A DNA stretch of 64,000 nt from Candidatus Binatia bacterium (GTDB taxonomy: Bacteria; Desulfobacterota; Binatia; UBA9968; JAJDTQ01), in contig OY762897.2 in assembly GCA_963666515.2 (NCBI GenBank), positions 1,376,001 through 1,440,000 on the forward strand. Direction: 5' to 3'. Position numbers and translations under genes: made by a program. Positions 14,295 through 41,293 of the stretch are shown piece by piece (the first letter of the stretch is position 1; the number at the start of each line of letters is the position of its first letter). The notes beneath the pieces are model-generated. The model saw only the letters and a list, made by a program, of their open reading frames with translations, searched no databases and was not told where the DNA came from.

Positions 14295-14343
14295 GGCGGC
14301 CGACAACCGTTCGTCCTGAGCATTCACGGAAAGGAGAGATACC

Positions 14344-15852: not shown

Positions 15853-15872
15853 TGCCCGGGATCGAGTGAGCC

Positions 15873-17945: not shown

Positions 17946-17973
17946 CGCCGTTCTCACGCCTCGAGGTTGCAAC

Positions 17974-20489: not shown

Positions 20490-20522
20490 CAGCCTGTCCG
20501 ATCCTGAAGTGGGAGTTGATTC

Positions 20523-21419
20523 ATGATCCCAAGGGCATTCGAATACTTCGATCCGCCGACGCTGGACGAGGCCGTGGCGCTTCTCGGACGGTACGGCGAC
20601 GACGCCAAGCTCATGGCCGGCGGCCAGAGCCTGCTGCCGATGATGAAGCTGAGGATGGTCTCGCCGGCGGTGGTGGTGGATCTCTGGCGCGTACCGGAAC
20701 TCGACTTCATTCGGCGAGACGATAACGTCGTCCGTATCGGCGCCATGACCACCCACTTCGAGCTTCACAGCTCGCCGCTGATCCAGAGCACCTTGCCAGC
20801 GTTGGCAGACGCCGCCCGGGTGGTAGGCGACCCGCTTGTGCGAAACCTCGGCACCATCGGCGGCAGCGCTGCCCACGCTGCCCACAACGCCGACTATCCG
20901 GCAGTGCTGGTGGCCCTCGACGCCGAGTTCCGCGCCGTGGGGCCGAACGGAGAGAGGATTATTGCCGCTGCCGATTTCTTCACCGACACTTTCACTACCA
21001 GCCTGGAAGCTACTGAAATTCTGACTGAAATCTCGATCCCCGTTCCGGGAGGCCAGGACCGTGGCGCGTACCTGAAGCTGAGCCGTCGCGGAACTGATTT
21101 CGCCATTGTGGGCGTAGCCGCGGTTCTCACGGAAGGAGAGGACGGAGGTTGCACCGATGCCCGCGTCGTACTCACCGGCGTTGCCGACATTCCCGTACGT
21201 GCCGGGGGGGCGGAAAGGATCCTCAAGGCCGGCCCTGTGGATCAGGACCGCATCCATGAGGCCGCAGAGGCCGCCAAACAGGACCTCGACCCCCCTTCGG
21301 ACGTCCAGGCGGACGCACAGTACCGTGTCGACGTCTCCGGCGTCTACGTGCGTCGCGCGGTGGCCGCAGCATGGGAACGTCCGGCAGGCGGCAATACAGC
21401 GCCCCCGTCATCTTCCTGA
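20523..21419 (+). CDS. xanthine dehydrogenase family FAD subunit (CoxM-like)
   Basis: AGGQSLLPMMKLR, VRNLGTIGGS, ADYPA. Confidence 0.9.
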   Translation: MIPRAFEYFDPPTLDEAVALLGRYGDDAKLMAGGQSLLPMMKLRMVSPAVVVDLWRVPELDFIRRDDNVVRIGAMTTHFELHSSPLIQSTLPALADAARVVGDPLVRNLGTIGGSAAHAAHNADYPAVLVALDAEFRAVGPNGERIIAAADFFTDTFTTSLEATEILTEISIPVPGGQDRGAYLKLSRRGTDFAIVGVAAVLTEGEDGGCTDARVVLTGVADIPVRAGGAERILKAGPVDQDRIHEAAEAAKQDLDPPSDVQADAQYRVDVSGVYVRRAVAAAWERPAGGNTAPPSSS

Positions 21420-21456
21420 GCCATGCTTGATCTTGACCAAGTCATATTCTGACCCC

Positions 21457-21696
21457 ATGAAGACCGCCACGATCCACCAGACCAAGACACACCTTTCCCG
21501 GATGTTGAAGGAGATTCAGGAGGGTGAGACCATCATCATACTCAACGGCTCTACGCCGGTGGCCAAACTGACAGCCATTGAGCCGCCCGCAGTCCGGCGT
21601 CCGAAGGTAGGCACGCGAACCTCGCCACCCGTCCAATACGCGGCCGATGCGTTCCAACCGCTCGCGGATGATCAACTGAAGAAGTGGGGTCTTTGA
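21457..21696 (+). CDS. Phd/YefM family antitoxin (no toxin gene follows)
   Basis: [17 protein letters not shown]...GETIII..G.PVAKL, C-terminal DAFQPL..WG. Confidence 0.8.
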
Positions 21697-21724
21697 CTCA
21701 GTACCCTTGAAAGGAATGGCCCAC

Positions 21725-22201
21725 ATGCCAAGAACCGTCCAGGCCACCGTCAACGGCCGTAAGTACTACGAGGAGAACGTCGAGCCGCGCCTGTTGCTGG
21801 TGCACTTCCTGCGGGATCGGCTGGGTCTCACCGGGACCCATGTGGGCTGTGATTCCACCAACTGCGGGGCGTGCACGGTGATGTTCAACGGCAAGGCCGT
21901 GAAGTCCTGCACGCTGCTTGCGGTGAGGGCCGACGGGGCCGAGATCACCACCATCGAGGGGGTGGCGGACGAGGACCGGCTTCATCCGCTCCAGGAGGGC
22001 TTCTGGGAGAAGCACGGCCTCCAGTGCGGCTACTGCACGCCGGGCATGATCATGTCGGCCTTGCAGTTGCTGGAGCGCCATCCCGACCCTGACGAGGCGA
22101 CCGTGCGGCAGGAACTGGAAGGGAACCTGTGCCGGTGCACGGGCTACCAGAACATCGTGGAGGCGGTGCTGTGGGCCGCCGAGCGGCTGAAGAGCGCGTG
22201 A
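21725..22201 (+). CDS. (2Fe-2S) subunit of Mo-hydroxylase (CoxS-like)
   Basis: [30 protein letters not shown]. Confidence 0.92.
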
Positions 22202-22217
22202 GGGTGAGGGTCAAGCC

Positions 22218-24587
22218 ATGCCAATGATCGGACAGAGCATCAAGCGGCGCGAGGACCTGAAGTACGTGACAGGCTCGGGCACCTACGTGGACGACATCAC
22301 CCTGCCGGGCATGCTCTACGCCGCGTTCGTGCGGAGCCCCCACGCCCACGCCCGGCTGCTGGGCGTGGACACGAGCAAGGCGCTGGAGCACCCCAAGGGC
22401 ATCGACGCCGTCACCGGCGCGGAAGCCTACCCGCTGGCGGGCCCCATGCCCGTCTACAGCTACCGTCAGGCCACGGCCATCAAGAAGCCGGACTACCGTT
22501 GCCTGGCCCACGACCGGGTGCGCTTCGTGGGCGAGCCGGTGGCGCTGGTGGCGGCCGCGGACCGCTACGCCGCGGACGACGTGGCCGAGCTGGTGGAGGT
22601 CCGGTACGAGCCCCTGGAGCCCCTGATGGACCCGGACGAGTCCCTCAAGCCGGACGCGCCAAAACTGCACGACAACCTGGACAACAACGTGGGGCTGCGC
22701 ATCGAGCGCCAGGGCGGGGACATGGAGGCCGCCTACCGGGAGGCCGACTTCGTCTTCAAACGGCGCTACCGCATGCACCGCCACACCGGCACACCCATCG
22801 AGACCCGGGGCTGCATCGCCCAGTACAACACCGGCACGAAGGAGCTGACCCTCCACTGCTCGACCCAGATCCCGCACATCCTCAAGACCCATCTGTCGGA
22901 GATACTGGACTTCCCCGAGTTCAAGATCCGGGTCATCGCGCCGGACGTGGGCGGCGGCTTCGGCAACAAGCTGCAGGTGCCGCCCGAGGTGGTGGCCGTG
23001 TGCCTGATGGCCATCAAGACGCGCCGCCCGGTGAAGTGGATCGAGACCCGGCGGGAGAGCCTGATGGCGTTCCTGCACGCCCGCGAACAGACCCACGACG
23101 TGGAGATCCCGGTGAAGCGGGACGGCACCATCCTGGGCATCAAGTCGCACGAGATCGTCAACGCCGGCGGCTATCTCGACGCCCGCATCAGCGGCCCGTC
23201 GCTGGGCGCCGGCATGTGGCTGCCCGGGCCTTACATGGTCAAGGGCTACCAGGTGGACATCGACGCGGTGATGACCAACAAGTGCCCCTACGGCGCCTAC
23301 CGGGGGTTCGGCAGCCAGATGGGCGCGCTGGTCATCGAGCGCTCTGTGGACCTCATCGCCCGCCAGCTCGGCCGCGACCCGGTGGACCTGCGCCGGCAGA
23401 ACGTCATCAAGGAGACCCCCTACAAGTGCGTCACCGGGCACGAGTTCGACAGCGGCGACTACGTGGCCGGGCTCGACAAGGCTCTGGAGATGGTGGACTA
23501 CCCGGCGCTCAGGGAGGAGCAGGCGCGGCTCCGCAGGGAAGGCCGCTACATGGGCATCGGCGTGGCCATGGCGGTGGAAGGCGCGGGCTGGAACACCTAC
23601 ACCGCGGCCATGGCCCAGCACTACGTGCCCACACTGGACTACGCCACGGTCACCATGCGCATGGACACCTCCGGCAACGTCAAGGTGCTCATCGGCGACG
23701 TCGCCTGCGGCACCAGCCACGCCACCACCGCGGCGCAGGTGGCCGCGGACGCCACCGGACTGCCCATCGAAACCATCGAAGTGGTGGAAGGGGACACCGC
23801 GGTGACGCCCTACGACTCGGGCACCCGCGCCGCGCGGTTCAGCGCGGTGGTGCTGCCGGCGGTGGCGGAGTCGGGCATGGCGCTCAAGAAGAAGGTGTGC
23901 CGCGTCGGCGCCCACTTGCTGGAGGGGTCCGAGGAGGACATGGAGATCGTCGAGGGGCAAGTGCAGGTGCGTGGCGTGCCGGACAGGAGCCTGCCGGTGA
24001 GCCGAGTGGCCCGGGTGGCCTACTCGGAGGTGGCGACCCTGCCCCGGGAAATCCCAGCGGGCCTCGAGGCCACCGAATCGTTCAAGGCGCCGGTGAGCGG
24101 CCTTTGCATCACCTGGCCCTACTCTATCCACATTCCGGTGGTGGAGGTGGACATCGAAACCGGCGCCGTGAAGTTCCTGCGCTACGCCATCGTCCATGAC
24201 TGCGGAGTCGAGATCAACCCCATGGTGGTGGAAGGGCAGGTGGTGGGCGGCACCGCCCAGGGCGTGGGCGGCGCTCTGCTGGAAGAGCTGGTCTACGACG
24301 AGGACGGCCAGCTCCTCACCACCAGCTTCATGGACTACCTCATCCCCACGGCCACGGACATGCCGTCTTTCGAGGTGTGCCATCTCCAGACCGCGGCGCC
24401 GCAGATTCCGGGCGGCTACAAGGGAATGGGGGAGGGCGGCTGCGTGTACGTCTACGCCGCGGTGGTGAACGCCGTGGCCGATGCCATCGAGCCCCTGGGG
24501 GTGGAGATCACTTCGACCCCGCTGTCGCCCAGCCGCATCCTGGAGCTGCTGCGGGAAGCCAAGGGCCGGAACGGAGGAAATGCCTGA
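22218..24587 (+). CDS. xanthine dehydrogenase family molybdopterin subunit (CoxL-like, not CODH)
   Basis: RSPHAHA, DVGGGFG.K, AYRGFG, QGVGGAL.E, KGMGE. Confidence 0.9.
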   Translation: MPMIGQSIKRREDLKYVTGSGTYVDDITLPGMLYAAFVRSPHAHARLLGVDTSKALEHPKGIDAVTGAEAYPLAGPMPVYSYRQATAIKKPDYRCLAHDRVRFVGEPVALVAAADRYAADDVAELVEVRYEPLEPLMDPDESLKPDAPKLHDNLDNNVGLRIERQGGDMEAAYREADFVFKRRYRMHRHTGTPIETRGCIAQYNTGTKELTLHCSTQIPHILKTHLSEILDFPEFKIRVIAPDVGGGFGNKLQVPPEVVAVCLMAIKTRRPVKWIETRRESLMAFLHAREQTHDVEIPVKRDGTILGIKSHEIVNAGGYLDARISGPSLGAGMWLPGPYMVKGYQVDIDAVMTNKCPYGAYRGFGSQMGALVIERSVDLIARQLGRDPVDLRRQNVIKETPYKCVTGHEFDSGDYVAGLDKALEMVDYPALREEQARLRREGRYMGIGVAMAVEGAGWNTYTAAMAQHYVPTLDYATVTMRMDTSGNVKVLIGDVACGTSHATTAAQVAADATGLPIETIEVVEGDTAVTPYDSGTRAARFSAVVLPAVAESGMALKKKVCRVGAHLLEGSEEDMEIVEGQVQVRGVPDRSLPVSRVARVAYSEVATLPREIPAGLEATESFKAPVSGLCITWPYSIHIPVVEVDIETGAVKFLRYAIVHDCGVEINPMVVEGQVVGGTAQGVGGALLEELVYDEDGQLLTTSFMDYLIPTATDMPSFEVCHLQTAAPQIPGGYKGMGEGGCVYVYAAVVNAVADAIEPLGVEITSTPLSPSRILELLREAKGRNGGNA

Positions 24588-25858
24588 TGCGTATCCGGGA
24601 GCTTGTAACCGCGTGCCGCGAGCGCGGCGACCTGTGCACCGTCGGCGAAGCCATCGACCGGGAGTCCATGCCCGGACGGATCCAGGACGAGGAGAAGAAC
24701 GGCAACCGCGCCATCCTGTTCGAGCGCGTCAACGGCTATGACGTGCCGGTGCTGGCCAACCTCTACGGCACCATGGAGCGTTACGCCCTGGGCCTGGGTA
24801 CGGATGTCGCGAAGATGTGGGAGCACTTCGACCACGCGGTGGCGCATCCGGAGCCCGTGCTGGAGGCCGCGGACGCCCCCTGCTTCGAGGTAGTGCACGA
24901 CGACCCGGACATCACGAAGATCCTGCCGCTGGCGCAGTACTCGGAACGGGACGCCGGCCCCTACATCACCTCCGGGGTGGTGTTCATGAAGGACCCGGAC
25001 TCGGGGCGCGTCAACATCTCCTTCATCCGCCACATGGTGAAGGGCCCCAAGAAGCTGGGTTTCAACCCCAAGTCGGTGCACAACCGGCTCTACTACAACC
25101 GCATCGCCCGCAAGGGGCGGCGGATGGAAGTGGCCATCACCCTGGGGCCGCCGTCGGAGATGCTGGCCGCGGCCGCGGGCTACATCCCGGAGGGGGTGGA
25201 CGAGGTCCAGGTGGCCACGGCGCTGGCCGCGCCGGAGCACCGCGGCGAGCTGGCCATGGCCCAATGCGGCGCCGTGGACATCCAGGTGCCGGCGGGGTGC
25301 GAGTTCGTCATCGAGGGGGTGGTGTCCACCGACCTGGAGACCGAGGGCCCGTTCGGCGACTGGACCGGCTGCTACGCCCGGCCGCAACAGAAGCCCACCC
25401 TGGACATCCTGCGAGTGTCGCACCGCCAGGACCCGGTGTACCAGACCATCCTGCCGGTGGACTCCAGGGAGCAGATCCTGCTCACCATCGTGCGGTTCTT
25501 GCCGGAGCTGGAGGCGATCCAGCGCAAGTATCCCGAGATCAAGCGTTACACGGTGCCCGACTACGCTTTGGGGCGACTGGTGGTGGCCGCGGTGGGACCC
25601 ACCGAGCGGGCGCCTGCGATCATGGACGACTACCTCGGGATCCAGTGCATCAACCGCGCCATCCTGGTGAACGAGGACGTGAACATCGACGACCCCGCTG
25701 ACGTGCTCTGGGCCGTGAGCAACCGTATCCTGGAGCCGGAGAAGGTGGTGGACCGGGGCTGCGACGACGAGTGGTGGAACAACTTGAAGCTGGGAATCGA
25801 CACCATGGTGGACATCGACGACATCCGCCATGTGCGGCCCAGGATCATCCACCGCTGA
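24587..25858 (+). CDS. UbiD family (prFMN-dependent) decarboxylase
   Basis: NLYGT, DAGPYIT, N.SFIR, EFVIEG, EGPFGD.TG.Y; TGATG coupling to the Mo subunit. Confidence 0.88.
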   Translation: MRIRELVTACRERGDLCTVGEAIDRESMPGRIQDEEKNGNRAILFERVNGYDVPVLANLYGTMERYALGLGTDVAKMWEHFDHAVAHPEPVLEAADAPCFEVVHDDPDITKILPLAQYSERDAGPYITSGVVFMKDPDSGRVNISFIRHMVKGPKKLGFNPKSVHNRLYYNRIARKGRRMEVAITLGPPSEMLAAAAGYIPEGVDEVQVATALAAPEHRGELAMAQCGAVDIQVPAGCEFVIEGVVSTDLETEGPFGDWTGCYARPQQKPTLDILRVSHRQDPVYQTILPVDSREQILLTIVRFLPELEAIQRKYPEIKRYTVPDYALGRLVVAAVGPTERAPAIMDDYLGIQCINRAILVNEDVNIDDPADVLWAVSNRILEPEKVVDRGCDDEWWNNLKLGIDTMVDIDDIRHVRPRIIHR

Positions 25859-25919
25859 GCGCGAGAGTATCCCCGACCCCTGGTGACTGCCTGAAGCGAA
25901 CCGAGCACTGGAGCCGACC

Positions 25920-26591
25920 ATGCCCAAGCTCATCGACCTGAGCCTGCCGCTGACCGCCAACGTCACCGTGGTGCCGGGCCATCCGACGCTGTCATTCCAC
26001 CCGATCCACCAGCACGAGACCCACGGGCGATCCAACACCGAGATGCGCGCCAGCATCCACACCGGCACCCACTGCGACCCGCCGTATCACTTCGTGCCGG
26101 GCGGCAAGACCATCGACCAGATGCCGCTGGAGCGTTTCATGGGCCCCGCGGTCAAGATAGACCTGCGGCGCAAGGTGAAGCCCAGGACCGGCATCACCAT
26201 CGACGACGTGCGCACCTCGCCGGGCTTTCGCGAGCGCGACCTCAAGGGAAGGATCGTGGTGTTCCACACGGGCTGGAACCGCAAGATGTTCGGCGAGCCC
26301 AACTACTACTTCGACAACCCGTTCATCACCGTCGAGCTGGCGCGCTGGCTGGTGTCCAAGCGCATCAAGGCGCTGGCCCTGGACTCGCCCCAGGACCAGG
26401 TGCAGGGGAAGGGCGAGCCGCGCCCCGGCGACTTCCCGGTGCACCGGACCTTCCTGGGCAAGGGCATCCCGTTCATCGAGCACCTGGCCAACCTGCACAA
26501 GGTGCGGCAGCGCACGTTCACGCTGATCGCCTTTCCCATCAAGATAGAGGGCGGAGACGGGGCGCCGTGCCGGGCGGTGGCGGTGGTGTAG
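25920..26591 (+). CDS. cyclase family metal-dependent hydrolase (kynurenine formamidase/isatin hydrolase-like)
   Basis: LIDLS, HTGTHCD.P.H, FHTGW, PVH, IEHL, GGDGAPCR. Confidence 0.88.
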   Translation: MPKLIDLSLPLTANVTVVPGHPTLSFHPIHQHETHGRSNTEMRASIHTGTHCDPPYHFVPGGKTIDQMPLERFMGPAVKIDLRRKVKPRTGITIDDVRTSPGFRERDLKGRIVVFHTGWNRKMFGEPNYYFDNPFITVELARWLVSKRIKALALDSPQDQVQGKGEPRPGDFPVHRTFLGKGIPFIEHLANLHKVRQRTFTLIAFPIKIEGGDGAPCRAVAVV

Positions 26592-26673: not shown

Positions 26674-27711
26674 TCACTTGGGCAGCATCCACTTGAGGCG
26701 TTCCTTGGTATCCGGTGACATGGACAGGATCGTGTCCGTGTGCTTCTCGGCTTCCTCGCCGGATACGTAGACGACGTTCAGCTTCGACTTCTTGGCGTCT
26801 GCCAGGAAGGCCGGGTCCTTGAGGGTGTCGGCATAGGCCTTGCGCCAAGCCGCCACACGGTCCTTGGGGGTGCCTGGCGGCAGCGTCACCGGCCGCTGGA
26901 AGTTGTACTGCACCGCCCAGGCGTTGAGCATCTCCACGTTGTCCTTGCCCTGGACCAGGTCCGTCACACGCGGCAGGCCCTTCACTTCCTTGTCTGGCGG
27001 GCTGCCGTGGACCAGGATCGGGATCAGCTTGTCGTCGCCCTTGGCGTCGAGCATGGAGCGCGCCGTGACACGCATGGACTCGAACGCCATGCACACGCCG
27101 CCCAGCTCCCTGGCCTGCAAGGCCAGCCGTATGATCGCCGTGCCCTTGTAACCGGGAACGATGTCGAAGATTTTCTTGCCGGAGGCGATGTTGAGGATGG
27201 TGGGCAGGGTGGTGCCGGTTCCGCCCGCCGATCCGACCTTGAGGGGCTTCCCGGACTTCACCAAGTCGTCCCAACTTTTGAGGCCGGTGAATCCCATCAC
27301 CGCGCAGCTCGGCCAACCGGTCACGGGTGCGCCGACCCAGCCGTAGTTCCGGCCCTTGAAGTTCACGCGCCGGGAGCCCAGCGCCTCGTGCAGCAGGAAC
27401 ACGTTGTTCCAGACGCCGACGGTCAGGCCGTCGGGCTTGACCTTGTTGTAGAGGTAGTTGGCGACGATGAGGCCGCCCGCGCCGGTCAGGTTCTGCACCA
27501 CCGGGGTCGGGTTGCCGGGAAAATGCTTGCTGATGTGGCGCGCGGCGGTGCGGGTATAGGTGTCGTAGCCGCCGCCGGGCGAGGCGCCGACGATGAACCG
27601 GATGGTCTTGCCCTTGAAGAACTTCTCGACGCCGAAGGCGTTGCCCGACACGCCCAGGACGAGCGCCAGCGCAATGCTCAGGCTGATGATTCCAACGACT
27701 GCTCGCTTCAT
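26674..27711 (-). CDS. TctC/Bug family substrate-binding protein
   Basis: signal peptide, GKTIRFIVG.SPGGGYD, VQNLTGAGG, GYKG, PPGTP. Confidence 0.9.
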   Translation of the reverse strand: MKRAVVGIISLSIALALVLGVSGNAFGVEKFFKGKTIRFIVGASPGGGYDTYTRTAARHISKHFPGNPTPVVQNLTGAGGLIVANYLYNKVKPDGLTVGVWNNVFLLHEALGSRRVNFKGRNYGWVGAPVTGWPSCAVMGFTGLKSWDDLVKSGKPLKVGSAGGTGTTLPTILNIASGKKIFDIVPGYKGTAIIRLALQARELGGVCMAFESMRVTARSMLDAKGDDKLIPILVHGSPPDKEVKGLPRVTDLVQGKDNVEMLNAWAVQYNFQRPVTLPPGTPKDRVAAWRKAYADTLKDPAFLADAKKSKLNVVYVSGEEAEKHTDTILSMSPDTKERLKWMLPK

Positions 27712-27768: not shown

Positions 27769-28797
27769 TTACTTGGGCAGCATCCAGTTCAGCCGCTCCT
27801 TGGTCTCCTCGGACAGGTTCAGCATGATTTCCACGTACTCGTCGATCCGCTCTCCGGACACGTACTCGACGTTCAGGCGTGACTTCTTGGCGTCCGCCAG
27901 AAAGGCGGGGTCGCTGAGGGTGGCGGCGTAGGCCTTGCGCCACGCGGCCACGCGTTCCTTGGGGGTTCCCGGAGCGAGGGTCAGCGGCCGCTGAAAGTTG
28001 TACTGCAAGGCCCAGGCGTTGAGCATGGCCACGTTGTCCTTGCCCTTGACGAGGTCGGCTACACGCGGGATGCCCTGTACTTCGGGATCCGGCGGATTGC
28101 CGTGAACGAGAATAGGGATCAGCTCGTCACCGCCCTTGGCGTCGAGCATCGAACGGGCGGTCACCCGCATGGACTCGAACGACATGCAGACCCCGCCCAG
28201 CTCTCTTGCCTGCATGGCCAGCCGCACCGGCGCGGTACCCCTGTAGCCGGGAATGATCTCGAAGATCTTCTTGCCGGTCGCCATGTTCAAGATGGTCGGC
28301 AGCGTGGTGCCGGTTCCACCGGCCGATCCCACCTTGAGGGGCTTGCCCGACTTGACCAGATCGTCCCAGCTCTTGAGGCCGGTGAATCCCATCACCGCGC
28401 AACTCGGCCACCCGGTGACGGGAGCGCCGACCCAGCCGAACTTCCGCGCGTCGAACTTGACCCGTCTGCTGCCCAGGGCCTGATGCACCACGAACTGGTT
28501 GTTCCACACGCCCACGGTCAGACCGTTGGGCTTGGTCTTGTTGTAGATGTAGTTGCCGGCGATGAGGCCGCCGGCGCCGGTGAGGTTCTGCACCACCGGC
28601 GTGGGCTTGCCCGGAAAGTGTTTGGTGATGTGGCGGGCGGTAGTCCGGGTATAGGTATCGTAGCCGCCGCCCGGCGCATGACCCACGATGAACCGGATGG
28701 TCTTGCCCTTGTAGAAGTCCGCCACGCTCCACGCCGGCCCCGACATGAGCGCCAAGGCTATGCCTGCCGTTGCCACGGCAGTGAGTGTCCGTACCAT
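27769..28797 (-). CDS. TctC/Bug family substrate-binding protein, tandem paralog
   Basis: same motifs as the neighbour; AAGGGAG RBS before ATG 28797. Confidence 0.9.
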   Translation of the reverse strand: MVRTLTAVATAGIALALMSGPAWSVADFYKGKTIRFIVGHAPGGGYDTYTRTTARHITKHFPGKPTPVVQNLTGAGGLIAGNYIYNKTKPNGLTVGVWNNQFVVHQALGSRRVKFDARKFGWVGAPVTGWPSCAVMGFTGLKSWDDLVKSGKPLKVGSAGGTGTTLPTILNMATGKKIFEIIPGYRGTAPVRLAMQARELGGVCMSFESMRVTARSMLDAKGGDELIPILVHGNPPDPEVQGIPRVADLVKGKDNVAMLNAWALQYNFQRPLTLAPGTPKERVAAWRKAYAATLSDPAFLADAKKSRLNVEYVSGERIDEYVEIMLNLSEETKERLNWMLPK

Positions 28798-28973
28798 TGT
28801 AAGCTCCCTTCCTGGATGGTGGAATGCACCGTTGCTAGAAGGCACACACAATGCAAGACGGCAGGAAGATTGTCAAGAACGGGAGGGACCTCGGGCGGCG
28901 GGCCTGTTGCCTGTCCGGGCCCCGTGTTATAGGTGCTGGTGGCCTTACAGACACCGATGGAGAGGTACGAACC

Positions 28974-29900
28974 ATGCTGAGCCAGCAAGAGATCGCGAGC
29001 ACGGTGACCGCGTTGTGGAAGAGCAACCAGTATGATCTTCCCGAGGACTTCAAGTCGTTCCTGCAGGAGCAGCACGACAAGGAGACCAGCGAGCTGGGGA
29101 AGGCTCACCTCAAGGCCAACCTGGACGCGGTGGCCACCGCTTCGGCCCGGAACATGCCTTTCTGCGCGGACACCGGGCTGTTGACCTACTACATCGGCCT
29201 CGGCACCGCGGTGATCGGCGAGATCGAGGGCGGCTACCAGGCGCTGGAGCGGACGCTGCGGGAGGTGAGCGCCGAGGTCACCTCGGACATCCCGCTCCGT
29301 CCCAACGCGGTGCATCCCATCACGCGCCACAACCCCAACACCAACCAGGGTCCCGGCTGCCCCGACATCAAGGTGCGGGTGGTGCCGGACGCGGACTACC
29401 TGGAGATCACCAACGTGGCCGTGGGCGGCGGCCCCGAGCTGGTGGGCAGCAAGTTCACCGTGCTGCCGCCCACCGCTGGCGAGAAGGGCGTACGGAAGTT
29501 CGTGGTGGAGTCCACCATCAACCTGGTGCGGCTCGGCGCCACCTGCTCGCCCAACCTCGTGGGCGTGGGGCTGGGCGGCACCTTCGAGACCTGCACGCGC
29601 ATGGCCAAGGAAGCGGCGATCCTGAGGCCGGTGGGCGACCGCAACCCCGACCCCGAGCTGGCCCGGCTGGAGGACCAGCTCATGGACGACATCCTGCGGC
29701 TCAAGCTGGGGCCCATGGGCATGGGCGGCTCCACCTCGGCCTTCGACGTCCACCTGGAGATGGCCTACTGCCACATGGCGACCCTTCCCGTGGCGGTGTA
29801 CCTCCAGTGCGCGGCCATGCGCCGCACCACCGTGCGCATGTACGCGGACGGCCGGGTCGAAAGCCTGCCGCTGTCGAGCTGGATGGAGCGGGATTCGTGA
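28974..29900 (+). CDS. Fe-S hydro-lyase alpha subunit (class I fumarase/tartrate dehydratase TtdA family), divergent
   Basis: PFCADTG, PLRPNAV, GGG.E, TCSP, GPMGMGG, LPVAV..QC (three Cys ligands). Confidence 0.85.
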   Translation: MLSQQEIASTVTALWKSNQYDLPEDFKSFLQEQHDKETSELGKAHLKANLDAVATASARNMPFCADTGLLTYYIGLGTAVIGEIEGGYQALERTLREVSAEVTSDIPLRPNAVHPITRHNPNTNQGPGCPDIKVRVVPDADYLEITNVAVGGGPELVGSKFTVLPPTAGEKGVRKFVVESTINLVRLGATCSPNLVGVGLGGTFETCTRMAKEAAILRPVGDRNPDPELARLEDQLMDDILRLKLGPMGMGGSTSAFDVHLEMAYCHMATLPVAVYLQCAAMRRTTVRMYADGRVESLPLSSWMERDS

Positions 29901-29951
29901 ACCGCGGACAACGCCATCGTCCGGCGGACTCCATGACCATCACCCGGGGTC

Positions 29952-30707
29952 TTGCTGCTTGACGCCGCCACCATCCTGGCGATCGCCGGAACCTTCCTGA
30001 TCGCGGGCACGGTCAAGGGGGTCGTCGGTCTCGGCCTCCCCTCGATCAGCCTCGCGCTGCTGGCGGTGGCCCTCGATCTGACCAATGCAATGGCCGTTCT
30101 CCTCGTGCCGTCCCTCGCCACCAACATATGGCAGGCGACAACCGGCGGCCACGGGCGGGTCCTTCTGCGCCGGATGTGGCTGTTCCTGCTGGCGGCGACG
30201 ACCACCGTGCTGCTCGGAGCGTCCGCGCTGACTCGCGTCGAGCTGTCGCTGCTGACCGCACTTCTCGGGTTGCTGCTGCTGGCGTACGGCGCCGCGAGTC
30301 TCGTCGGACAGCGATTCCGCCTCGAAACCCGTCATGAGAAGTGGGTCGGGGCGCTGGCCGGACTCGTGAACGGGGTCTTCACCGGTATGACGGGATGCTT
30401 CGCCGTGCCCGGGTTGATGTACCTTCAATCGCTCGGTTTCTCCAAAGATGCGCTGATCCAGGCCATGGGAATGCTGTTCACGGTTTCCACGGTGGCTCTC
30501 GGGTTCGCGCTTCACGCCAACCACCTGCTGCGCCTGGAGCACGGCTTCGTTTCCACCCTGGCCCTGCTGCCGGCCATGGCGGGAATGGTCATCGGGCAGC
30601 GAATCCGCAACCGGCTCTCCGAGCAGTCGTTCCGGAAGGTATTCTTTCTTGCTCTCCTTGCGTTGGGCGCGTACCTGGCCTCGGGCGCGTTCGGCAGCTT
30701 GCAATGA
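29952..30707 (+). CDS. TauE/SafE family sulfite exporter-like membrane protein
   Basis: AGTVKGVVGLG, second repeat G.FTGMTG, about 8 TM helices. Confidence 0.85.
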   Translation: MLLDAATILAIAGTFLIAGTVKGVVGLGLPSISLALLAVALDLTNAMAVLLVPSLATNIWQATTGGHGRVLLRRMWLFLLAATTTVLLGASALTRVELSLLTALLGLLLLAYGAASLVGQRFRLETRHEKWVGALAGLVNGVFTGMTGCFAVPGLMYLQSLGFSKDALIQAMGMLFTVSTVALGFALHANHLLRLEHGFVSTLALLPAMAGMVIGQRIRNRLSEQSFRKVFFLALLALGAYLASGAFGSLQ

Positions 30708-30753
30708 CGGGGGCGTCCACATAGGCTGCACAACGGTCCGGGAGGAGGATGAC

Positions 30754-31362
30754 ATGAAGTCGGTCCATCTGCAGAGTCCGGTATCCGGGGAAGCCCTGCG
30801 CGCTCTCGACGCCGGCGATTCGGTCACCATCAGCGGGCGCCTGTTCACCTGCAGGTCGCTGACCTATGACCGCCTGATCGATCCCGAGGGAGGGGAGGGC
30901 GTCCGCAACCGCCTGAAGGAGCTGGGCGCGGAAACCGTGTTCCACAGCGGCCCGCTGGTCAAGGAAGGGCCGGACCACGCCGAGATGATCGCCATGGTGC
31001 CCATGCCGAGCTGGCTCGCCGGACGCGAGAAGATCGAGAAGGCCGTCGGCCTGCTGGGCCTCAAGCTGATCATCGGCAAGGGCATGCTCGAAGGGCTGGA
31101 AGAGTTCTGCAAGAAGTCCGGCTGCGTGCACCTGGTGTGCGCCGGCAACTACAACGAGTACGCCGCACGGGTGACACGGGTCATCGAATGCGTCTGGCCC
31201 GAGCTGGGCCGCCCCGAGGCCATGTGGATCGTGGAGGTGGACGCGCTGGGCCCGCTGATCGTCGACGCAGACACCAAGGGCAAGAGCCTGTACCAGGACA
31301 TCGACGAGGACTTCAAGTCCGACGCCGCGGCGCTGCTGGAAGAGCTGGATATCAAATTGTAG
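30754..31362 (+). CDS. Fe-S hydro-lyase beta subunit (TtdB/fumarase C-terminal family), divergent
   Basis: L.AGD.V.ISG.LFT, FHSGP, IIGKG, ELG.PEAMW, GPLIV..D.KG.SLY. Confidence 0.85.
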   Translation: MKSVHLQSPVSGEALRALDAGDSVTISGRLFTCRSLTYDRLIDPEGGEGVRNRLKELGAETVFHSGPLVKEGPDHAEMIAMVPMPSWLAGREKIEKAVGLLGLKLIIGKGMLEGLEEFCKKSGCVHLVCAGNYNEYAARVTRVIECVWPELGRPEAMWIVEVDALGPLIVDADTKGKSLYQDIDEDFKSDAAALLEELDIKL

Positions 31363-31382
31363 GGGCGACCGCCGGTCGCCCT
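31359..31382 (+). repeat. GTAG-type REP palindrome
   Basis: GTAGGGGCGACC-GCC-GGTCGCCCT; related copies at 32051-32075 and 55135-55162, degenerate copy near 27749. Confidence 0.7.
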
Positions 31383-32034
31383 AAAACCCCGGAGCCACCT
31401 TCTTCCGCTCAACCCCATCCCACGTGTCGATGACTTCCCGGTGGGACGCCACCGCGCCGAACTGGCGGCGGGTGTTCTCCAGGGTGCCCTCGTGGAGCAC
31501 CGGGTCCGGACCCGCCATGCAGTCCTCCACCATGGTGACGTAGTAGTCCAGCATGAAGGCGTCCCGCATGGTGCTTTCCACGCACACGTTGGTGGCCACG
31601 CCGGTCAGCAGCACGCTCTCGATGCCCTTGGCCTTGAGGATGGTGTCGAGGTCGGTGTTGATGAAGGCGCTGTAACGGTGCTTGATCACCACCCGCTCGT
31701 CCGCCCGGGGCTCGATGCCGTCGAAGAAGTCGACGCCCCAGGAGCCTTCGCGGCAGGTCTCGGTATCGGCGCCCTCGGGCTTGCGGTAGAGCCAGGGCTC
31801 GGTGTCGGTCCACTCGCTGTGGACGGTCTGGATGTAGATGATGGGCAGGCTCACCTCGCGCGCCTCGTCGATGAGCTCGTAGAGGTTGGGCATCATCTCC
31901 AGACCCGGTTTGATGTCCATGCCGCGCCTGGCGCACGCCCCATCGGGGCTGCAGAAGTCGTTCTGCACGTCCACCACGATAAGCCCCGCCAGCTTGGGGT
32001 CGCAACGCTCCTTGAGACTCCGTAATACGCTCAT
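31381..32034 (-). CDS. isochorismatase-family cysteine hydrolase (RutB-like amidohydrolase)
   Basis: VDVQNDF, KHRYSAF, GVATNVCVEST.RDA (Asp-Lys-Cys triad). Confidence 0.9.
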   Translation of the reverse strand: MSVLRSLKERCDPKLAGLIVVDVQNDFCSPDGACARRGMDIKPGLEMMPNLYELIDEAREVSLPIIYIQTVHSEWTDTEPWLYRKPEGADTETCREGSWGVDFFDGIEPRADERVVIKHRYSAFINTDLDTILKAKGIESVLLTGVATNVCVESTMRDAFMLDYYVTMVEDCMAGPDPVLHEGTLENTRRQFGAVASHREVIDTWDGVERKKVAPGF

Positions 32035-32050
32035 GTCGGGCTCCTTCGCA

Positions 32051-32075
32051 CGGGGCGACCGCAGGTCGCCCCTAC
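32051..32075 (-). repeat. GTAG-type REP palindrome
   Basis: reverse strand reads GTAGGGGCGACC-TGC-GGTCGCCCCG. Confidence 0.7.
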
Positions 32076-32083
32076 CTGTCGCC

Positions 32084-32902
32084 TCAGTCGGCCATCATTT
32101 CCTTTTGCATCGGGGTGAGGGCGTTGGAACAACCCACCATGCTGTTGCGGGTCACCAGCCCGGCCAGTTGCTCTTCGCTCCAGCCCTCGGTCCCTTCCGG
32201 ACGGCGGGGCACCACCAGGTAGCGGGTCTCAGCGGTGCTGTCCACCACCCGCACCTCCATGGACTCGGGCAGATCCAGCCCCATTTCCGTCAGCACCCGG
32301 CGGGGGTCCACCACCAAGCGGGTTCGGTAATTGGTGCTCTTGTACCAGTCGGGCGGCTGTCCCAGCAGTTGGCGCGGATAGCACGAGCACAGCGTGCACA
32401 CCACCACGTGGTGCACGTCATCGGTGTTCTCCACCGCGATGAGCTGATTGGCGGTGGACATGTCGACACCCAGCTCCTCGGCTGCAGCGATGCCGTCGCC
32501 GAAAAGGCGCTTCTTGTACTCGGCGTCCACCCATGCCCGGGCCACGACACGCGAGCCCTGGTGCGGCGACACCCCCTCGTTCTCGTCGATCTTGCGCCGC
32601 ACCTCATCCGTGCTGATGATGCCCTTCTCGCGCAGCAGGTTGCCCATGGCGAGCATCTGCTTCTCGAACAGCGTGTACTCGTGCTCGGTGGTGTCGATGG
32701 GATTGTTCGCGTGGAGCTGCTCGAACACGTCGTCGTGGCTGTGGTCGTGTCCGTGGCCTCGTTTGACCTGCCTCACCTCATCCGCCGTCAGGACGCCCCG
32801 TTCCAGCAACAGGTCCGCGGTGGCACGGGCGCGCCGCTCGAAGTAGGTCTTCTCATCGCCGGCCGCCGGCTCGGTGTGCTCTTCCTGCTTTTCCTTGGCC
32901 AT
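32084..32902 (-). CDS. Co-type nitrile hydratase alpha / thiocyanate hydrolase gamma-like subunit with duplicated N-terminal extension
   Basis: VVARAW, VCTLCSCYPR metal motif (Thr = Co type), PPDWYKS..YR, DSTAETRYLV.P.RP, VTRNSMVG. Confidence 0.9.
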   Translation of the reverse strand: MAKEKQEEHTEPAAGDEKTYFERRARATADLLLERGVLTADEVRQVKRGHGHDHSHDDVFEQLHANNPIDTTEHEYTLFEKQMLAMGNLLREKGIISTDEVRRKIDENEGVSPHQGSRVVARAWVDAEYKKRLFGDGIAAAEELGVDMSTANQLIAVENTDDVHHVVVCTLCSCYPRQLLGQPPDWYKSTNYRTRLVVDPRRVLTEMGLDLPESMEVRVVDSTAETRYLVVPRRPEGTEGWSEEQLAGLVTRNSMVGCSNALTPMQKEMMAD

Positions 32903-32934
32903 GACGTTCTCCCGTAGATTTCTTCCCGAAACGT

Positions 32935-33225
32935 TTACCTTGGTTCGAGCCACTGCTCGAAGATGTCCGCGTAGATCTTGTTGACGCCCTCGGGCGCGGG
33001 CCGGTCGTCCCACACGTGGGCCAGATCGAACTCGATGGAGTACAGGTTGGCCATGGGCAGGCCGTCCTTGCCGAAGGAAAGCAGTTCCGGGTCCTTGAAG
33101 CTGCCGCGGATGTCCGCCACCACGCCGTCCTTGCCCCTTAGATACTGGGGCGAGCGGATGTGGTGCCCCAGCGTCAACGTGTCCAGAACCCTGACCGGAT
33201 CGCCCGGCTTGTAGCGAAAGCTCAT
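32935..33225 (-). CDS. NHase beta C-terminal SH3-like domain protein (ScnA-like)
   Basis: YKPGDPVRV, HIRSPQYLRGK.G, PE, LYSIEF...VW, DIFEQWLEP. Confidence 0.85.
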   Translation of the reverse strand: MSFRYKPGDPVRVLDTLTLGHHIRSPQYLRGKDGVVADIRGSFKDPELLSFGKDGLPMANLYSIEFDLAHVWDDRPAPEGVNKIYADIFEQWLEPR

Positions 33226-33232
33226 GGGCGCC

Positions 33233-33261
33233 AGTCTCGACTTTCGGAGGTTGATTGTCAA
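33233..33261 (-). promoter_or_regulatory. putative sigma70 promoter of a leaderless NHase-like operon
   Basis: TTGACA-17 bp-GAGACT-7 nt-ATG; GTTGA-caa-TCAAC inverted repeat overlaps the -35. Confidence 0.5.
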
Positions 33262-33289: not shown

Positions 33290-35014
33290 TCAGGCTTTCG
33301 CCGTTCTACCGCTGAACCGGTCGAGCCAGGCGCCGCTCAGCAGCCAGGAATAGCCCCAGGTTCCGACGGCGATGAGCACGAACGCGGTCACGATGCCGGA
33401 TGTGCTCCCCTGGAGCGAGAAGCCCGGCACGTAGCCGAACAGGAAGGGCGCGAGGTAGAGGAACTTGGCGAACTTGAAGGCGCTGAACGCGGTCTTCCAC
33501 ATGTCGGCCTGGGCGATGGTGGCGCCGGTGAAGGCGGCGATGCATACCGGCGGGGTGATGTTCGAGTCCTGGGACAGCCAGTAGACGATCATGTGCGCCG
33601 CGATGGGGTTGGCGCCCAGCTCCGTCAGCGGCGGCACCGCCACGACTGCGGTGATCAGGTAGGCGGCGGTCACCGGCACGCCCATGCCGAGGATCAGGGA
33701 GGCCAAGGCGATGAGCAGGATGGTCAGCCACAGCCGGCCGTCGGCCAGCGCGATGACGATGTCGGCGAACGTGAGCACCAGGCCGCTGTAGGTCAGCACG
33801 CCGATGATGATGCCGATGACGCCCAGGGTGGCGCCGATCTTGAGGCTGTTCTCGGCCCCCGCGCGGGCCGCTTCCAGGAAGCGTTGCGGCCCGATCCTCG
33901 TGTCCGGGCGCAGCCAGCTCACCGCGATGCAGGTCGCCATGCCGAGTATGGCGGAATAGGCGGGCGAGTACCCCATCAGCATCAGCACGGTGATGACCGC
34001 GAGCGGCAGCACATAGTACCAGCCTCGCCCGAATATCTCTCCGGCGCAGGTCTCCGACTTCTCGCCCCGGATGCCGTGCTGCCTGGCCTCGTAGTGGACC
34101 ATGACGTAGACGCTGAAGAAGTACATGAGGGCCGGAAAGACGGCCACCAGCATGATGGCGGAGTAGGGCACGCCGGTAAGCTCCGACATGATGAAGCCGC
34201 CGGCGCCCATGATGGGAGGCATGAACATGCCGCCGATGGAGGCGGCGGGCTCGATGGCGCCGGCCACGTGCGGCTTGAAGCCGGCCTTCTTCATCATGGG
34301 GATGGTGAAGTTGCCGGTGGAGACGGTGTTGGCGATGGCGCTGCCGGAGATGGAGCCGAACAGGCCGCTGGCGATCACCGCCACCTTGGCCGGGCCGCCG
34401 ACCCGGTGGCCCACCGCGGCAAGCGGGAAGTCCACGAAGAACCGTTGCGCTCCGCTGGCTTCGAGGAAGGCGCCGAAGATGACGAACAGGATCACGTAGG
34501 TGGCCAGCACGTTAGCCATGATGCCGAAGACCCCGTCGCTCTTGTAGAAGATGCTGGTGCACAGGGCCGGGAAGGTATCCCCGGCATGGGAGATGAGGTC
34601 GGGCATGGAATCGCCGTAGACCCCGTAGAGCAGCATGACCCCGCCCAGGACGACGAAGACGTTCCCCACCACCCGGCGCGCCAGCTCCACGCCGATCAGC
34701 ACGCCCGCCACGGCGATCCATTGATCCAGGACGGTTTCGACGCCGACCCGGTAGTTGATGGCCTCGAAGTTCCACATCCAGTAGCCGATGCACACCACCG
34801 ACGCGGCCATCAGCAGATAGTCGGCCATCCGGCCCGGCCCGCTCCGGGAGCGGTAGAGGAGGAACACGAGCACATAGGTGATGACGACGTAGATGCCGCG
34901 ATGGTACTGGGTGGCCGCGGGAACGAGCACCGCGGAGTACGAATAGAACAGCACCAGGACGAGCGAGAGGACGTCGAACAGCCATCGCTCCGCGGTGTTC
35001 AGCTTTTCGAACAT
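33290..35014 (-). CDS. TRAP transporter fused permease (TAXI-associated)
   Basis: ELARR, GGPAKVAV, SGSAIANTV.TG.FTIP, AASIGG..MPPIMGA, GMGVP.TAAY, ITPPV. Confidence 0.92.
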   Translation of the reverse strand: MFEKLNTAERWLFDVLSLVLVLFYSYSAVLVPAATQYHRGIYVVITYVLVFLLYRSRSGPGRMADYLLMAASVVCIGYWMWNFEAINYRVGVETVLDQWIAVAGVLIGVELARRVVGNVFVVLGGVMLLYGVYGDSMPDLISHAGDTFPALCTSIFYKSDGVFGIMANVLATYVILFVIFGAFLEASGAQRFFVDFPLAAVGHRVGGPAKVAVIASGLFGSISGSAIANTVSTGNFTIPMMKKAGFKPHVAGAIEPAASIGGMFMPPIMGAGGFIMSELTGVPYSAIMLVAVFPALMYFFSVYVMVHYEARQHGIRGEKSETCAGEIFGRGWYYVLPLAVITVLMLMGYSPAYSAILGMATCIAVSWLRPDTRIGPQRFLEAARAGAENSLKIGATLGVIGIIIGVLTYSGLVLTFADIVIALADGRLWLTILLIALASLILGMGVPVTAAYLITAVVAVPPLTELGANPIAAHMIVYWLSQDSNITPPVCIAAFTGATIAQADMWKTAFSAFKFAKFLYLAPFLFGYVPGFSLQGSTSGIVTAFVLIAVGTWGYSWLLSGAWLDRFSGRTAKA

Positions 35015-35122: not shown

Positions 35123-36094
35123 CTACATCACGCCCTTTTCCTTCCAGAAGCGTGTCGCGCCCGGGTGGAGCGGGGTCACGATGCCCTTGGTGCCGTCCTT
35201 GATGCTCATTTCCTTGAAGGTCTTCTTCTGGTTGCGCATGTAGGCGAGGCCCTCGTCCGTGTAGACCTTGGAGAGCAGGTCGTAGACGACATCCGCGGAC
35301 ACCTTGGAATTGGCGACCCAGAGCGTCGAGTCCTGGAACGAGGGGGCGGCCTTGTCGACGCCGCGGTAGGTGGCGGCGGGCACCGCCAGCCTGGCGAAGT
35401 AGGGGTACTTCTTGAAGAAGCCGCTGTCCTCGGCGTCCTTGGCGAGATCGACCAGTTCGATGTCGTTGGTCTGAGCGGCCATGATCACGGCGCCGCTGGG
35501 AAACGCGGTGAACAGCCAGAAGGCGTCGAGCTGGTTGTTGCCGAAGGCGGCGGCGGCATCGTTGTACCCCATGGCGTTGCGCTTGACCTTGTCCCAGATG
35601 CCCATGTGGGTGAAGAACAACTCGCAGTTGGCGAAGGCGCCGGAGCCCGCGTTGCCCACGCCGACCCGCTTGCCCACCAGGTCCTTGACACTGCGGATAC
35701 CCGACCCCTTGCGCACCACCAGTTGTGCCGGCGCCCCGTACAGGTAGGAGACTGCGAGCACGTCCGTGTATTTCCGCTTGTCGTTCTTCAAGCGGCCGTT
35801 GTGCCCGAGGTACACGTGACCGGAATAGACCACGCCGAACTGCATCCGGCCGGCGTTGACCTTGCGCAGGTTCTCCACCGAGCCGGCCGAGGACTGGGCC
35901 CTGACCGTGTAATCCTTGGACTGCTTGACCGGGCCGTAGGTCTGGATGGAGTTGGCCACGATCTGGAACGTGCCGCCCGCCGGGCCGCCGCCGAAGACCA
36001 TGCGTTTGCCGGCCAGGGCGGTAGCGGAAAAACCGAGGACGCAGGCCGTAAACGCCGCGCCTGCTACAAGGATCGCTCTGCGGCTCAAGCTCAT
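35123..36094 (-). CDS. TAXI family TRAP solute-binding protein
   Basis: GGGPAGGTF, SAGSVENL, DLVGKRV.VG..GSG, PLHPGA. Confidence 0.92.
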   Translation of the reverse strand: MSLSRRAILVAGAAFTACVLGFSATALAGKRMVFGGGPAGGTFQIVANSIQTYGPVKQSKDYTVRAQSSAGSVENLRKVNAGRMQFGVVYSGHVYLGHNGRLKNDKRKYTDVLAVSYLYGAPAQLVVRKGSGIRSVKDLVGKRVGVGNAGSGAFANCELFFTHMGIWDKVKRNAMGYNDAAAAFGNNQLDAFWLFTAFPSGAVIMAAQTNDIELVDLAKDAEDSGFFKKYPYFARLAVPAATYRGVDKAAPSFQDSTLWVANSKVSADVVYDLLSKVYTDEGLAYMRNQKKTFKEMSIKDGTKGIVTPLHPGATRFWKEKGVM

Positions 36095-36251
36095 GATCGT
36101 TCTCCTTTCGAGTTCCTGATTCGTCCGGTTCACCAACTGGTTACGTCACGTTTCAGTAAAGATGACCCATGGCGGATGTCAATCCTTTCGTCCGCTCAAT
36201 GAGTCTTGAACGGTTGACAATCACCGCGGCCCTGACGTAGAAGTTACGGCC

Positions 36252-40524: not shown

Positions 40525-41079
40525 TCAGAAAACCTTTGTCAGGTCCACGGCCAAGCCTGGAAACAAGGGTGTGGTGAAGGTTTCTCTCCGCCCGTAAACT
40601 CCGGTAGGGGCCATCCGTCCGTCCTCCAGCCGGAGCGTCTCGATGATAGTGGTGTGCGGGTCCACCAGCCAGTACTCAGCGACGCCGTGGCGGGCGTAGA
40701 GATCCATTTTGACGCCGCGGTCACGCCGCCGGGTGGAAGGCGAAGCTATCTCGACGACCAGATCCGGGGCGCCGTGGACGTCGCGTTCGGTGATGATCGA
40801 CGCCCGCGCCGCGGACACGAAAAGGAGGTCCGGCTGCAGCACGTTGGTGTCGGAGAGGTAGACATCGGTAGGGGCGATGAGCACTTCGCCCAGACCATGC
40901 TCCTTCACGAACGGAACCAGGAGAACAGCGAGATCGACAAGCACCCTTTGGTGCGACGTGGTGGGCGCCGGCTCCATGACCACCAGTTCTCCTTCGATGA
41001 GTTCATACCGTACGTCATCAGGGGTCTTGAGATAATCCTGGTAGGTGTACAGGGTTTGGCTGGATTCGTTCGCCATCAT
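40525..41079 (-). CDS. Uma2 family PD-(D/E)XK endonuclease-like protein
   Basis: RYELIEG, P...HQ, QPDLLF, PDLVVEI.SPST...D...K...Y...GV.EYWLVDP. Confidence 0.92.
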   Translation of the reverse strand: MMANESSQTLYTYQDYLKTPDDVRYELIEGELVVMEPAPTTSHQRVLVDLAVLLVPFVKEHGLGEVLIAPTDVYLSDTNVLQPDLLFVSAARASIITERDVHGAPDLVVEIASPSTRRRDRGVKMDLYARHGVAEYWLVDPHTTIIETLRLEDGRMAPTGVYGRRETFTTPLFPGLAVDLTKVF

Positions 41080-41293
41080 GGGCCTCCCGTATCTCTCGAA
41101 ACGCCGCCGGGCACATGTCAATGGAAACAGGGAGAGGGGCAGAACGCAAGCGTGAGCACGGCCATGACCACCAGGACAAGACGGCGCTTCATCAACCGCC
41201 GCAAATGCGTTACGTTGGCCGATAACCCGCGCATCACGGCCGCGGGCGGCTTACGGACCACCCCGTGCGAGAATCTCTCAGGGAGGACTCCAC

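Follow-up and report, generated by a model that had tools for sequence, protein, structure and literature searches.

Nitrile hydratases (NHases) are found as canonical α/β enzymes, as in Pseudonocardia thermophila and Pseudomonas putida, and in forms whose subunits are divided or joined differently. The AnhD/AnhE/AnhA enzyme of Streptomyces canus and the toyocamycin NHase of S. rimosus are described, in the accessible part of PMC7329996, as three-subunit, activator-free enzymes; three-subunit NHases are reported there to take up cobalt and mature without an activator, and the AnhD-type N-terminal portion of β (β-N) to be β part and metallochaperone in one. The same source cites a report that the S. 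rimosus α subunit alone is active and sufficient for maturation. In eukaryotic β-α fusion NHases (Monosiga brevicollis and others), a His-rich stretch precedes the α domain, according to the available text of PMC3323583. Here, we describe a locus within 64,000 nt of contig OY762897.2 (GCA_963666515.2, Candidatus Binatia bacterium; positions 1,376,001-1,440,000, forward strand; hereafter, the window) that encodes a small subunit consisting of the C-terminal β domain (β-C), an α subunit with a duplicated N-terminal arm and a cysteine amidohydrolase. With a probability of roughly 0.6, we read it as a two-chain, cobalt-type NHase lacking β-N, derived from three-subunit stock, in which the duplicated arm replaces the β-N helices and which is coupled to the amidohydrolase.

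Canonical NHases share with this locus the α fold, the VCTLCSCYP motif and a homologous β-C; the locus differs from them in lacking β residues 1 to ~130 and an activator gene, in having Arg rather than Trp after CSCYP and in the duplicated α arm. Three-subunit NHases are alike in that a separate β-C gene lies directly upstream of α, no activator is present and the α N-terminus is His-rich, whereas here the β-N gene is absent from the locus, the arm is doubled and β-C carries a one-residue insertion. The three-subunit thiocyanate hydrolase (SCNase) of Thiobacillus thioparus also has a split β and Arg after CSCYP, but here there is no ScnB-type subunit at the locus and the operon partner is an amidohydrolase. 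Eukaryotic β-α fusions resemble the locus in having helical material fused N-terminally to α behind a His-rich spacer; in them, whole β-N plus β-C is fused, whereas here β-C is separate and the fused piece is a copy of the α arm.

The genes lie on the minus strand, four to five of them in the order TAXI binding protein, TRAP permease, β-C, α and hydrolase, and are separated by short gaps (64 nt between TRAP permease and β-C, 32 nt between β-C and α and 49 nt between α and hydrolase). An earlier note on this DNA, made from the letters alone, had claimed a β-C protein, an α subunit with VCTLCSCYPR and two repeats joined by GHGHDHSHDD, and a hydrolase; all of these were present at approximately the positions it gave. 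The profile scan that it proposed returned PF02979 on α, PF02211 on β-C and a β-N match on the α N-terminus. Its description of a two-gene NHase-family enzyme with a duplicated arm and a His-rich linker, without a separate β-N/ScnB or activator gene at the locus and coupled to an isochorismatase-type cysteine amidohydrolase, was likewise borne out, the gene absence by profile search of the 64 kb and of 20 related loci and the coupling by 18 of these 20. To place the locus among its relatives, one genome per species was scanned, returning 60 loci. A full-length α orthologue with 85-93% identity was found in 20 of them, all from metagenome-assembled genomes (MAGs) labelled mostly as Candidatus Binatia and otherwise as Thermodesulfobacteriota, Syntrophobacterales or Deltaproteobacteria; in one more MAG, the α gene was split across two contigs.

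The α subunit (32084..32902; 272 aa including the initiator Met) is preceded by GGGAGAA 6 nt ahead of the ATG. It matched PF02979 over residues 79-257 with 262.6 bits (cut-off 27.2; E 2e-78) and narrowly passed the TIGR01323 NHase α cut-off (252.4 versus 249.85 bits). The metal-binding motif VCTLCSCYPR was read from the sequence at residues 168-177 (32372..32401); all ten residues are invariant over 69 aligned α sequences and conform with the NHase α motif as defined in the accessible part of PMC7329996. Solved Co-type NHases have the identical VCTLCSCYP, followed by W or R. Because we take the Thr and Tyr of the motif to denote the cobalt type, and because the closest solved chains were Co-NHase α subunits (E 1e-59), ahead of Fe-type chains (E 1e-48), the enzyme was assigned as cobalt-type. 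An AlphaFold2 (AF2) monomer of α had a mean predicted local distance difference test (pLDDT) value of 82.7, and a structure search with it retrieved Co-NHase α chains at a template modelling (TM) score, normalised to the target, of 0.86-0.90 and 45-50% identity; the matches were limited to α chains and ran via the core, so that they are uninformative on the extra arm.

The β-C protein (32935..33225; 96 aa) matched PF02211 with E 9e-17 over profile positions 11-98 of 98. For full-length NHase β it scored 57 bits against TIGR03888, below the cut-off of 152, the β-C domain alone being present; no β-C domain was detected on the α chain by Pfam scan, and the α chain is hence not a β-α fusion. In all 20 orthologous loci, β-C adjoins α on its upstream side. 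Arg24, in an H-H-I-R-S-P loop, is invariant among 46 aligned β-C sequences, and in the duplicated-arm family one additional residue precedes it. The best reading of the α/β-C pair is that of a Co-type NHase-family enzyme with predicted catalysis.

For the detection of β-N, a profile was built from 42 stretches of other NHase loci (41 β-N and one activator-like). The first-round profile was used, the second iteration having absorbed Binatia α sequences and thereby inflated self-hits. Neither β-N nor an activator was found among six-frame open reading frames (ORFs) of at least 40 aa in the window, where the sole match was the α gene itself, nor within 10 kb on either side in the 20 orthologous loci (L001-L020), where matches fell only inside α. 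In 13 canonical loci, the same profile picked up ORFs resembling activators (E 1e-3 to 5e-18), which follow the structural genes. Overall, β-N lay beside α in 38 of 38 other NHase loci versus 0 of 21 duplicated-arm loci (the window and L001-L020). Of the former, 25 were of the three-subunit type, with a separate β-N gene of ~100 aa upstream of a separate β-C gene. A Burkholderiales MAG (L060, 4412-5570) carries two tandem β-N genes ahead of β-C and α.

The β-N Arg is invariant in 40 of 41 β-N rows, and variants of β-R56 are reported, in the available part of PMC7193024, to be inactive. As stand-ins for this residue, the invariant pair of Arg residues that opens the α extension, the conserved DEVRR of the proximal arm and the one-residue insertion beside the invariant β-C Arg are put forward only as suggestions.

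The N-terminal part of α comprises a distal, extra arm module (residues 18-48; 32759..32851), which repeats residues 75-102, the His-rich linker GHGHDHSHDDVFEQLHANNP (residues 49-68; 32699..32758) and the proximal, original arm module (residues 69-110; 32573..32698), which aligns with the arm helices of solved Co-NHase α subunits. BLASTP of residues 14-50 versus 66-112 gave 13 identities in 28 positions (E 7e-9, one comparison). The distal module is a helix-turn-helix beginning with Y-F-E-R-R, and a Y-F/Y-x-K/R/N-R start was present in all 30 members of the duplicated-arm family. In the AF2 model, helices 20-34 and 40-47 of the extra arm had pLDDT values of 73-79, and those of residues 1-17 and 49-68 were below 50.

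In Pfam and NCBIfam, α residues 7-52 match β-N positions 56-101 (E 1e-6 and 6e-8; 29 bits, cut-off 21.5), and the earlier note had supposed that the catalytic chain incorporates the missing ScnB helices, perhaps in permuted form. The extension was, therefore, compared with α arms and β helices as profiles in equal 27-column registers. Scored with an arm profile made from 38 unduplicated relatives, it reached a mean of 38.0 bits, versus 19.7 and 20.9 bits with β module 2 of three-subunit and canonical loci, respectively, and the α-arm profile gave the higher score for each of the 30 family members. At the site that separates the classes, β has Trp (34/35), α has Arg (30/38) and the extension has Arg (30/30). 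Because the α-arm profile wins throughout and the α-type Arg occupies the β Trp site, the extra helix is concluded to be a tandem duplicate of the α subunit's own arm module rather than a relocated piece of β.

The β-N match on the extension is explained by a general likeness of the α-arm and β helical modules. Using hhalign, the α-arm module aligned with β-N module 2 (the Y-Y-E-R-W helix) at 97.8% probability (E 9e-13) and with β-N module 1 (the helix ending in the invariant Arg of E-x-R-x-x-I-E) at 96.2% (E 2e-9), values that are nominal, as they derive from single comparisons of short profiles. This likeness suggests that a single helix-turn-helix module, present three times, makes up the α/β helical interface. 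With small reference sets, the proximal arm of the family and six sister arms scored β-like in the same way as the extension; by these profiles, the arm of the whole sub-clade appears to be β-like, which accounts for the Pfam β-N calls on ordinary α subunits of 211-213 aa within it (P0045, P0061). Two further analyses of the extension were without weight: a complex prediction in which the extra arm (residues 1-55) was paired with the α core (56-272) and β-C scored 0.14 against a mark of 0.32 and counts neither way, and the best ESM Atlas hit to residues 1-60 (0.75; a 62-aa cluster with β-N in 13% of its members) was under the reliability mark and was not used.

The His-rich stretch was regarded in the earlier note as a linker that may load Co without an activator. 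Unduplicated α subunits of Gaiellales, Dehalococcoidia, Burkholderiales and others start with a His-rich tail, followed by H-A-P-I-x-D and the arm helix; conservation of H52 and H56 across the 69 α sequences is 90% or more, and divergent members of the family retain remnants of a His-rich leader ahead of the first arm copy. The linker is thus the ancestral N-terminal tail of α and not a new acquisition. Between the two arm copies, it is the distal one that retains the ancestral Tyr and Arg (each in 30 of 30 members); in the proximal copy, the Tyr is gone in 29 and the Arg in 27 of 30.

Codon analysis of 21 α genes revealed ratios of nonsynonymous to synonymous substitution (dN/dS) of 0.47 for the first 16 residues, 0.17 for the extra helix module, 0.03 for the His-rich linker, the most constrained part of α, 0.14 for the original arm and 0.08 for the core. 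The extension is translated and under purifying selection. These values also bear on the possibility that α works alone, stabilised by β-C, with the extra arm and His stretch being a metal-binding or solubility tail devoid of any β-like role. Such an arrangement would agree with the sufficiency of S. rimosus α for activity and maturation (reported in the accessible part of PMC7329996), with the strong constraint on the linker and with the low model confidence at residues 1-17 and 49-68. We consider it quite improbable, in view of the purifying selection on the helix module, its invariant start in 30 of 30 members and the retention of β-C, including the invariant Arg, in 20 of 20 loci.

A tree of the α core (168 columns, 72 rows; midpoint root for drawing only) placed the 30 duplicated-arm α sequences in one clade (100/99). 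The enclosing clade (100/98) contains 22 α sequences of three-subunit loci, a β-N-α fusion (P0026) and six α sequences of no known context; 13 canonical α sequences lie outside it. The loss of β-N at the locus and the gain of the extra arm fall on the same branch, for which a single origin from a three-subunit-type ancestor would be the simplest reading; kinship to that type rests on the 22 loci in the tree, the Streptomyces sequences themselves being outside it. The fusion P0026 (307 aa, Chloroflexi MAG) is a single bacterial chain of complete β-N, a His-rich stretch and α. It corresponds, in a prokaryote, to one part of the eukaryotic β-α fusion and comes closer to the present design than that fusion does; the available part of a 2012 survey reports no β-α fusions in its prokaryotic data (PMC3323583).

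In a collection of 5.8 billion proteins, 20 clusters and no more had at least 68% identity to the best local match (3 fragments). The next hits, at 64% identity or below, were ordinary α subunits of 190-250 aa, and most of 120 longer proteins listed had all three Pfam domains, as in the eukaryotic fusion type, all at 63% identity or below. No description of an arm-duplicated NHase lacking β-N was found in the literature (subscription-only papers were not covered), nor was a paper on nitrile hydratase in Binatia, and no operon of this kind combining an NHase with an isochorismatase-type enzyme was evident among the papers listed for the two. By these counts, the architecture is rare.

In three orthologous loci (L004, L013, L018), β-C and α were found among unrelated genes (a kinase, a VWA protein, housekeeping genes), accompanied by the hydrolase in L004 and L018 and not in L013. 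This recurrence in unrelated neighbourhoods implies that the stable unit is β-C plus α, usually together with the hydrolase. The same observation is relevant to the unlikely alternative that β-N or an activator is encoded elsewhere and acts in trans on a three-part NHase, the extra arm then being an accessory for oligomerisation or metal capture. The evidence on the absence of β-N comes from the locus, the genes for β-N, β-C and α are already spread over 3-5 kb in some Dehalococcoidia relatives (L023, L025, L028), and the essential β-N Arg (as given in the available part of PMC7193024) has no obvious substitute, all of which would fit supply in trans. Against it stand the contrast of 0 of 21 with 38 of 38 loci, the coincidence of β-N loss and arm gain on one branch and the entry of the β-C/α pair into unrelated contexts as a unit, each time without β-N.

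A relation to thiocyanate hydrolase had been proposed in the earlier note, with CSCYPR as a marker of SCNase and DEVRR as the β Arg-Arg pair. In its full form, this explanation sees an SCNase-like enzyme that acts on thiocyanate or another anion and whose catalytic chain has taken up the ScnB/β-N helices, perhaps in permuted form. The β-N match on residues 7-52 is in its favour, as are the anion transporter upstream, the closer fit of the extension to β module 2 when few or distant reference α sequences are used, and the Arg after CSCYP as in SCNase, at a site marked as differing by the PDB titles, which list the swap mutants W116R (NHase) and R136W (SCNase) for this residue. The residue after CSCYP is, however, R, K or T in three-subunit relatives that retain β-N, and DEVRR belongs to the arm of α itself, with a conservation of 90% or more over the 69 α sequences, including relatives with β-N. 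The α subunit aligned with the SCNase γ subunit at E 4e-52 and missed the γ equivalog cut-off (TIGR03887, 211.4 versus 291.45 bits), and the β-C profile scored 94.8 bits on Co-NHase β (residues 130-218) as compared with 52.1 bits on the SCNase α subunit. In all 30 members, the extension fits the α-arm profile built from the nearest relatives better than the β profiles; this, its α-type Arg at the β Trp site and the flagging of β-N on ordinary 211-213-aa α subunits also speak against relocated ScnB helices. Hydrolysis of thiocyanate yields carbonyl sulfide and ammonia, leaving no role for an amidohydrolase thereafter. These comparisons point to the α/β-C enzyme being nearer to NHase than to thiocyanate hydrolase, and the SCNase-like explanation is regarded as very improbable; neither of the two proposed markers retained its meaning.

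The gene downstream of α encodes an isochorismatase-family cysteine amidohydrolase (31381..32034; 217 aa), which matched PF00857 with 168.7 bits (cut-off 27; E 2e-49). Its segments VVDVQND (Asp), IKHRYSAF (Lys) and TGVATNVCVEST (Cys) align with solved RutB, and we take the Asp, Lys and Cys to be the catalytic triad positions. RutB was also the best NCBIfam model, with 123 bits against an equivalog cut-off of 378; the BiuH equivalog cut-off was missed as well (86.3 versus 370 bits). The hydrolase gene lies directly downstream of α in 18 of the 20 orthologous loci and is missing in L013 and L014. Hydration converts a nitrile to an amide and an N-cyano group to a ureide, both being typical substrates of isochorismatase-superfamily hydrolases. 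The three-subunit NHase of S. canus is reported to be active on N-cyano insecticides (PMC7329996, accessible part). A two-step route, in which NHase is followed by the hydrolase, is plausible.

Upstream of β-C, a fused TRAP permease of 574 aa (33290..35014, minus strand; TIGR02123, 568 bits, cut-off 321) and a TAXI-family TRAP solute-binding protein of 337 aa (35123..36136, minus strand; TIGR02122, 211 bits, cut-off 84; PF16868, E 2e-55) are encoded; the nearest solved structures of the latter are TAXI binding proteins. Among the orthologous loci, the permease was present upstream in full length in 9 of 20, with remnants in 2 more, and the binding protein in 7 of 20. The upstream TAXI-TRAP transporter, present in only about half of the loci, hints at an anionic substrate.

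A GC-rich palindromic hairpin occupies the gap between α and hydrolase (32054..32070), with a second copy directly past the hydrolase gene (31364-31380). The palindrome, GGCGACC-NNN-GGTCGCC, had two matches in total in the 64-kb window (0.11 expected), one on each side of the hydrolase gene. A mobile cassette bounded by the palindromes was considered and rejected, as palindromes occur elsewhere in related genomes and none in the hydrolase-less loci L013 and L014. Like palindromes were found at other intergenic sites in 6 of 22 related loci, and the element is probably a member of a family resembling repetitive extragenic palindromic (REP) sequences.

Taken together, the preferred reading of a two-chain NHase without β-N is as follows. 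The enzyme descends from three-subunit NHases with β-N, β-C and α and without an activator; in a lineage labelled mostly Binatia, the β-N gene has disappeared from the locus, and a second copy of the arm stands ahead of the ancestral His-rich tail, by which the tail was turned into a linker. In solved NHases, the helical domain of β packs on the α arm; because of this packing and of the likeness of the modules, a second α arm is a plausible substitute for β-N. Most likely, the duplicated arm packs on the original one and fills the place of the lost β-N helices. It may thereby bring the invariant Tyr and Arg of the Y-F-E-R-R start near the active site, to which β-C would contribute its own invariant Arg. 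As is reported of three-subunit NHases, the enzyme would load cobalt and oxidise its Cys residues by itself, possibly with the aid of the strongly constrained His-rich linker, and it is probably activator-free. It would hydrate a nitrile or N-cyano group to the amide or ureide, which the co-transcribed amidohydrolase would cleave to the acid (or amine) and ammonia; the pathway is the weakest part of this explanation.

Several observations weigh against this interpretation. The verdict on the duplication depends on the reference α sequences chosen: the extension reached 13.7 bits with four α sequences of three-subunit loci and 14.9 bits with eight canonical ones, less than the above scores of β module 2 (19.7 and 20.9 bits), which was ahead in 30 of 30 members when the four-sequence reference profile was used. 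The nearest unduplicated α subunits (P0024, P0045 and others) are known without gene context, and the position of the Arg following DE in the extension varies among divergent members. The placement of the extra arm in a complex rests on an AF2 monomer of moderate confidence in this part (pLDDT 73-79). The absence of β-N and activator covers 64 kb here and flanks of 10 kb in both directions in the relatives, and no substitute has been identified for the β-N Arg reported as essential. With regard to the coupling, two of the 20 loci lack the hydrolase, and about half lack the TRAP transporter.

Other genes of the window were recorded for completeness. A divergently transcribed two-subunit hydro-lyase of the class-I fumarase/tartrate-dehydratase type is encoded at 28851-31362, both subunits scoring under the equivalog cut-offs; such a divergent fumarase-like gene pair was found in 17 of the 20 orthologous loci. 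Here, a TauE-family exporter gene is located between the two subunit genes, and TauE was present in 5 of 20 related loci (L005, L006, L007, L015, L017). In most related loci, the fumarase-like pair is adjoined by tandem paralogous secreted proteins (26674-27711 and 27769-28851 here), which are ~77-80% identical to each other in the relatives; they resemble TctC-type tricarboxylate receptors only below threshold (16-18 bits against a cut-off of 27) and are without a match in NCBIfam. The region 11901-26591 holds a catabolic cluster with a family III CoA-transferase, a MaoC-like dehydratase, two FAD_binding_2 flavoproteins, a fused TctA-TctB permease (690 aa), a three-part molybdenum hydroxylase (FAD, 2Fe-2S and molybdenum cofactor subunits), a UbiD-family decarboxylase and an arylformamidase-like cyclase. 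This cluster looks like one for the degradation of an aromatic or N-heterocyclic acid, its link to the NHase not being established. As clues to the NHase substrate, these neighbours (fumarase-like pair, TauE, molybdenum hydroxylase, UbiD, arylformamidase-like protein) pointed to N-heterocycle or dicarboxylate catabolism; they were rejected as evidence, because β-C and α also occur in unrelated surroundings. A Uma2-family endonuclease gene (40525-41121) and a gene for a Schlafen/AlbA_2 plus HATPase_c_4 protein (48612-50848) adjoining that of a ParA/MinD-like ATPase are possible leftovers of defence or mobile elements.

In its widest form, which we put forward tentatively, the finding would describe a minimal, self-maturing Co-NHase that dispenses with the β-N half and its essential Arg and has its helical interface rebuilt by arm duplication, the arm and the two β-N modules going back to one ancestral helix-turn-helix and the invariant Arg of the extension possibly tuning the enzyme to nitriles or N-cyano compounds that are anionic. 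NHases rank among the major biocatalysts of industry, and the need for a full β subunit and an activator hampers their expression and engineering. If the above holds true, a smaller working NHase scaffold would be defined, and it would be put to the test whether the "essential" β Arg is dispensable or can be supplied from elsewhere. The family would also illustrate how internal duplication in one subunit can make up for the loss of its partner, and the likeness of the α-arm and β modules bears on the origin of the α/β heterodimer. For the abundant, uncultured Binatia, the locus may represent a means of using nitriles or N-cyano compounds as a nitrogen source.

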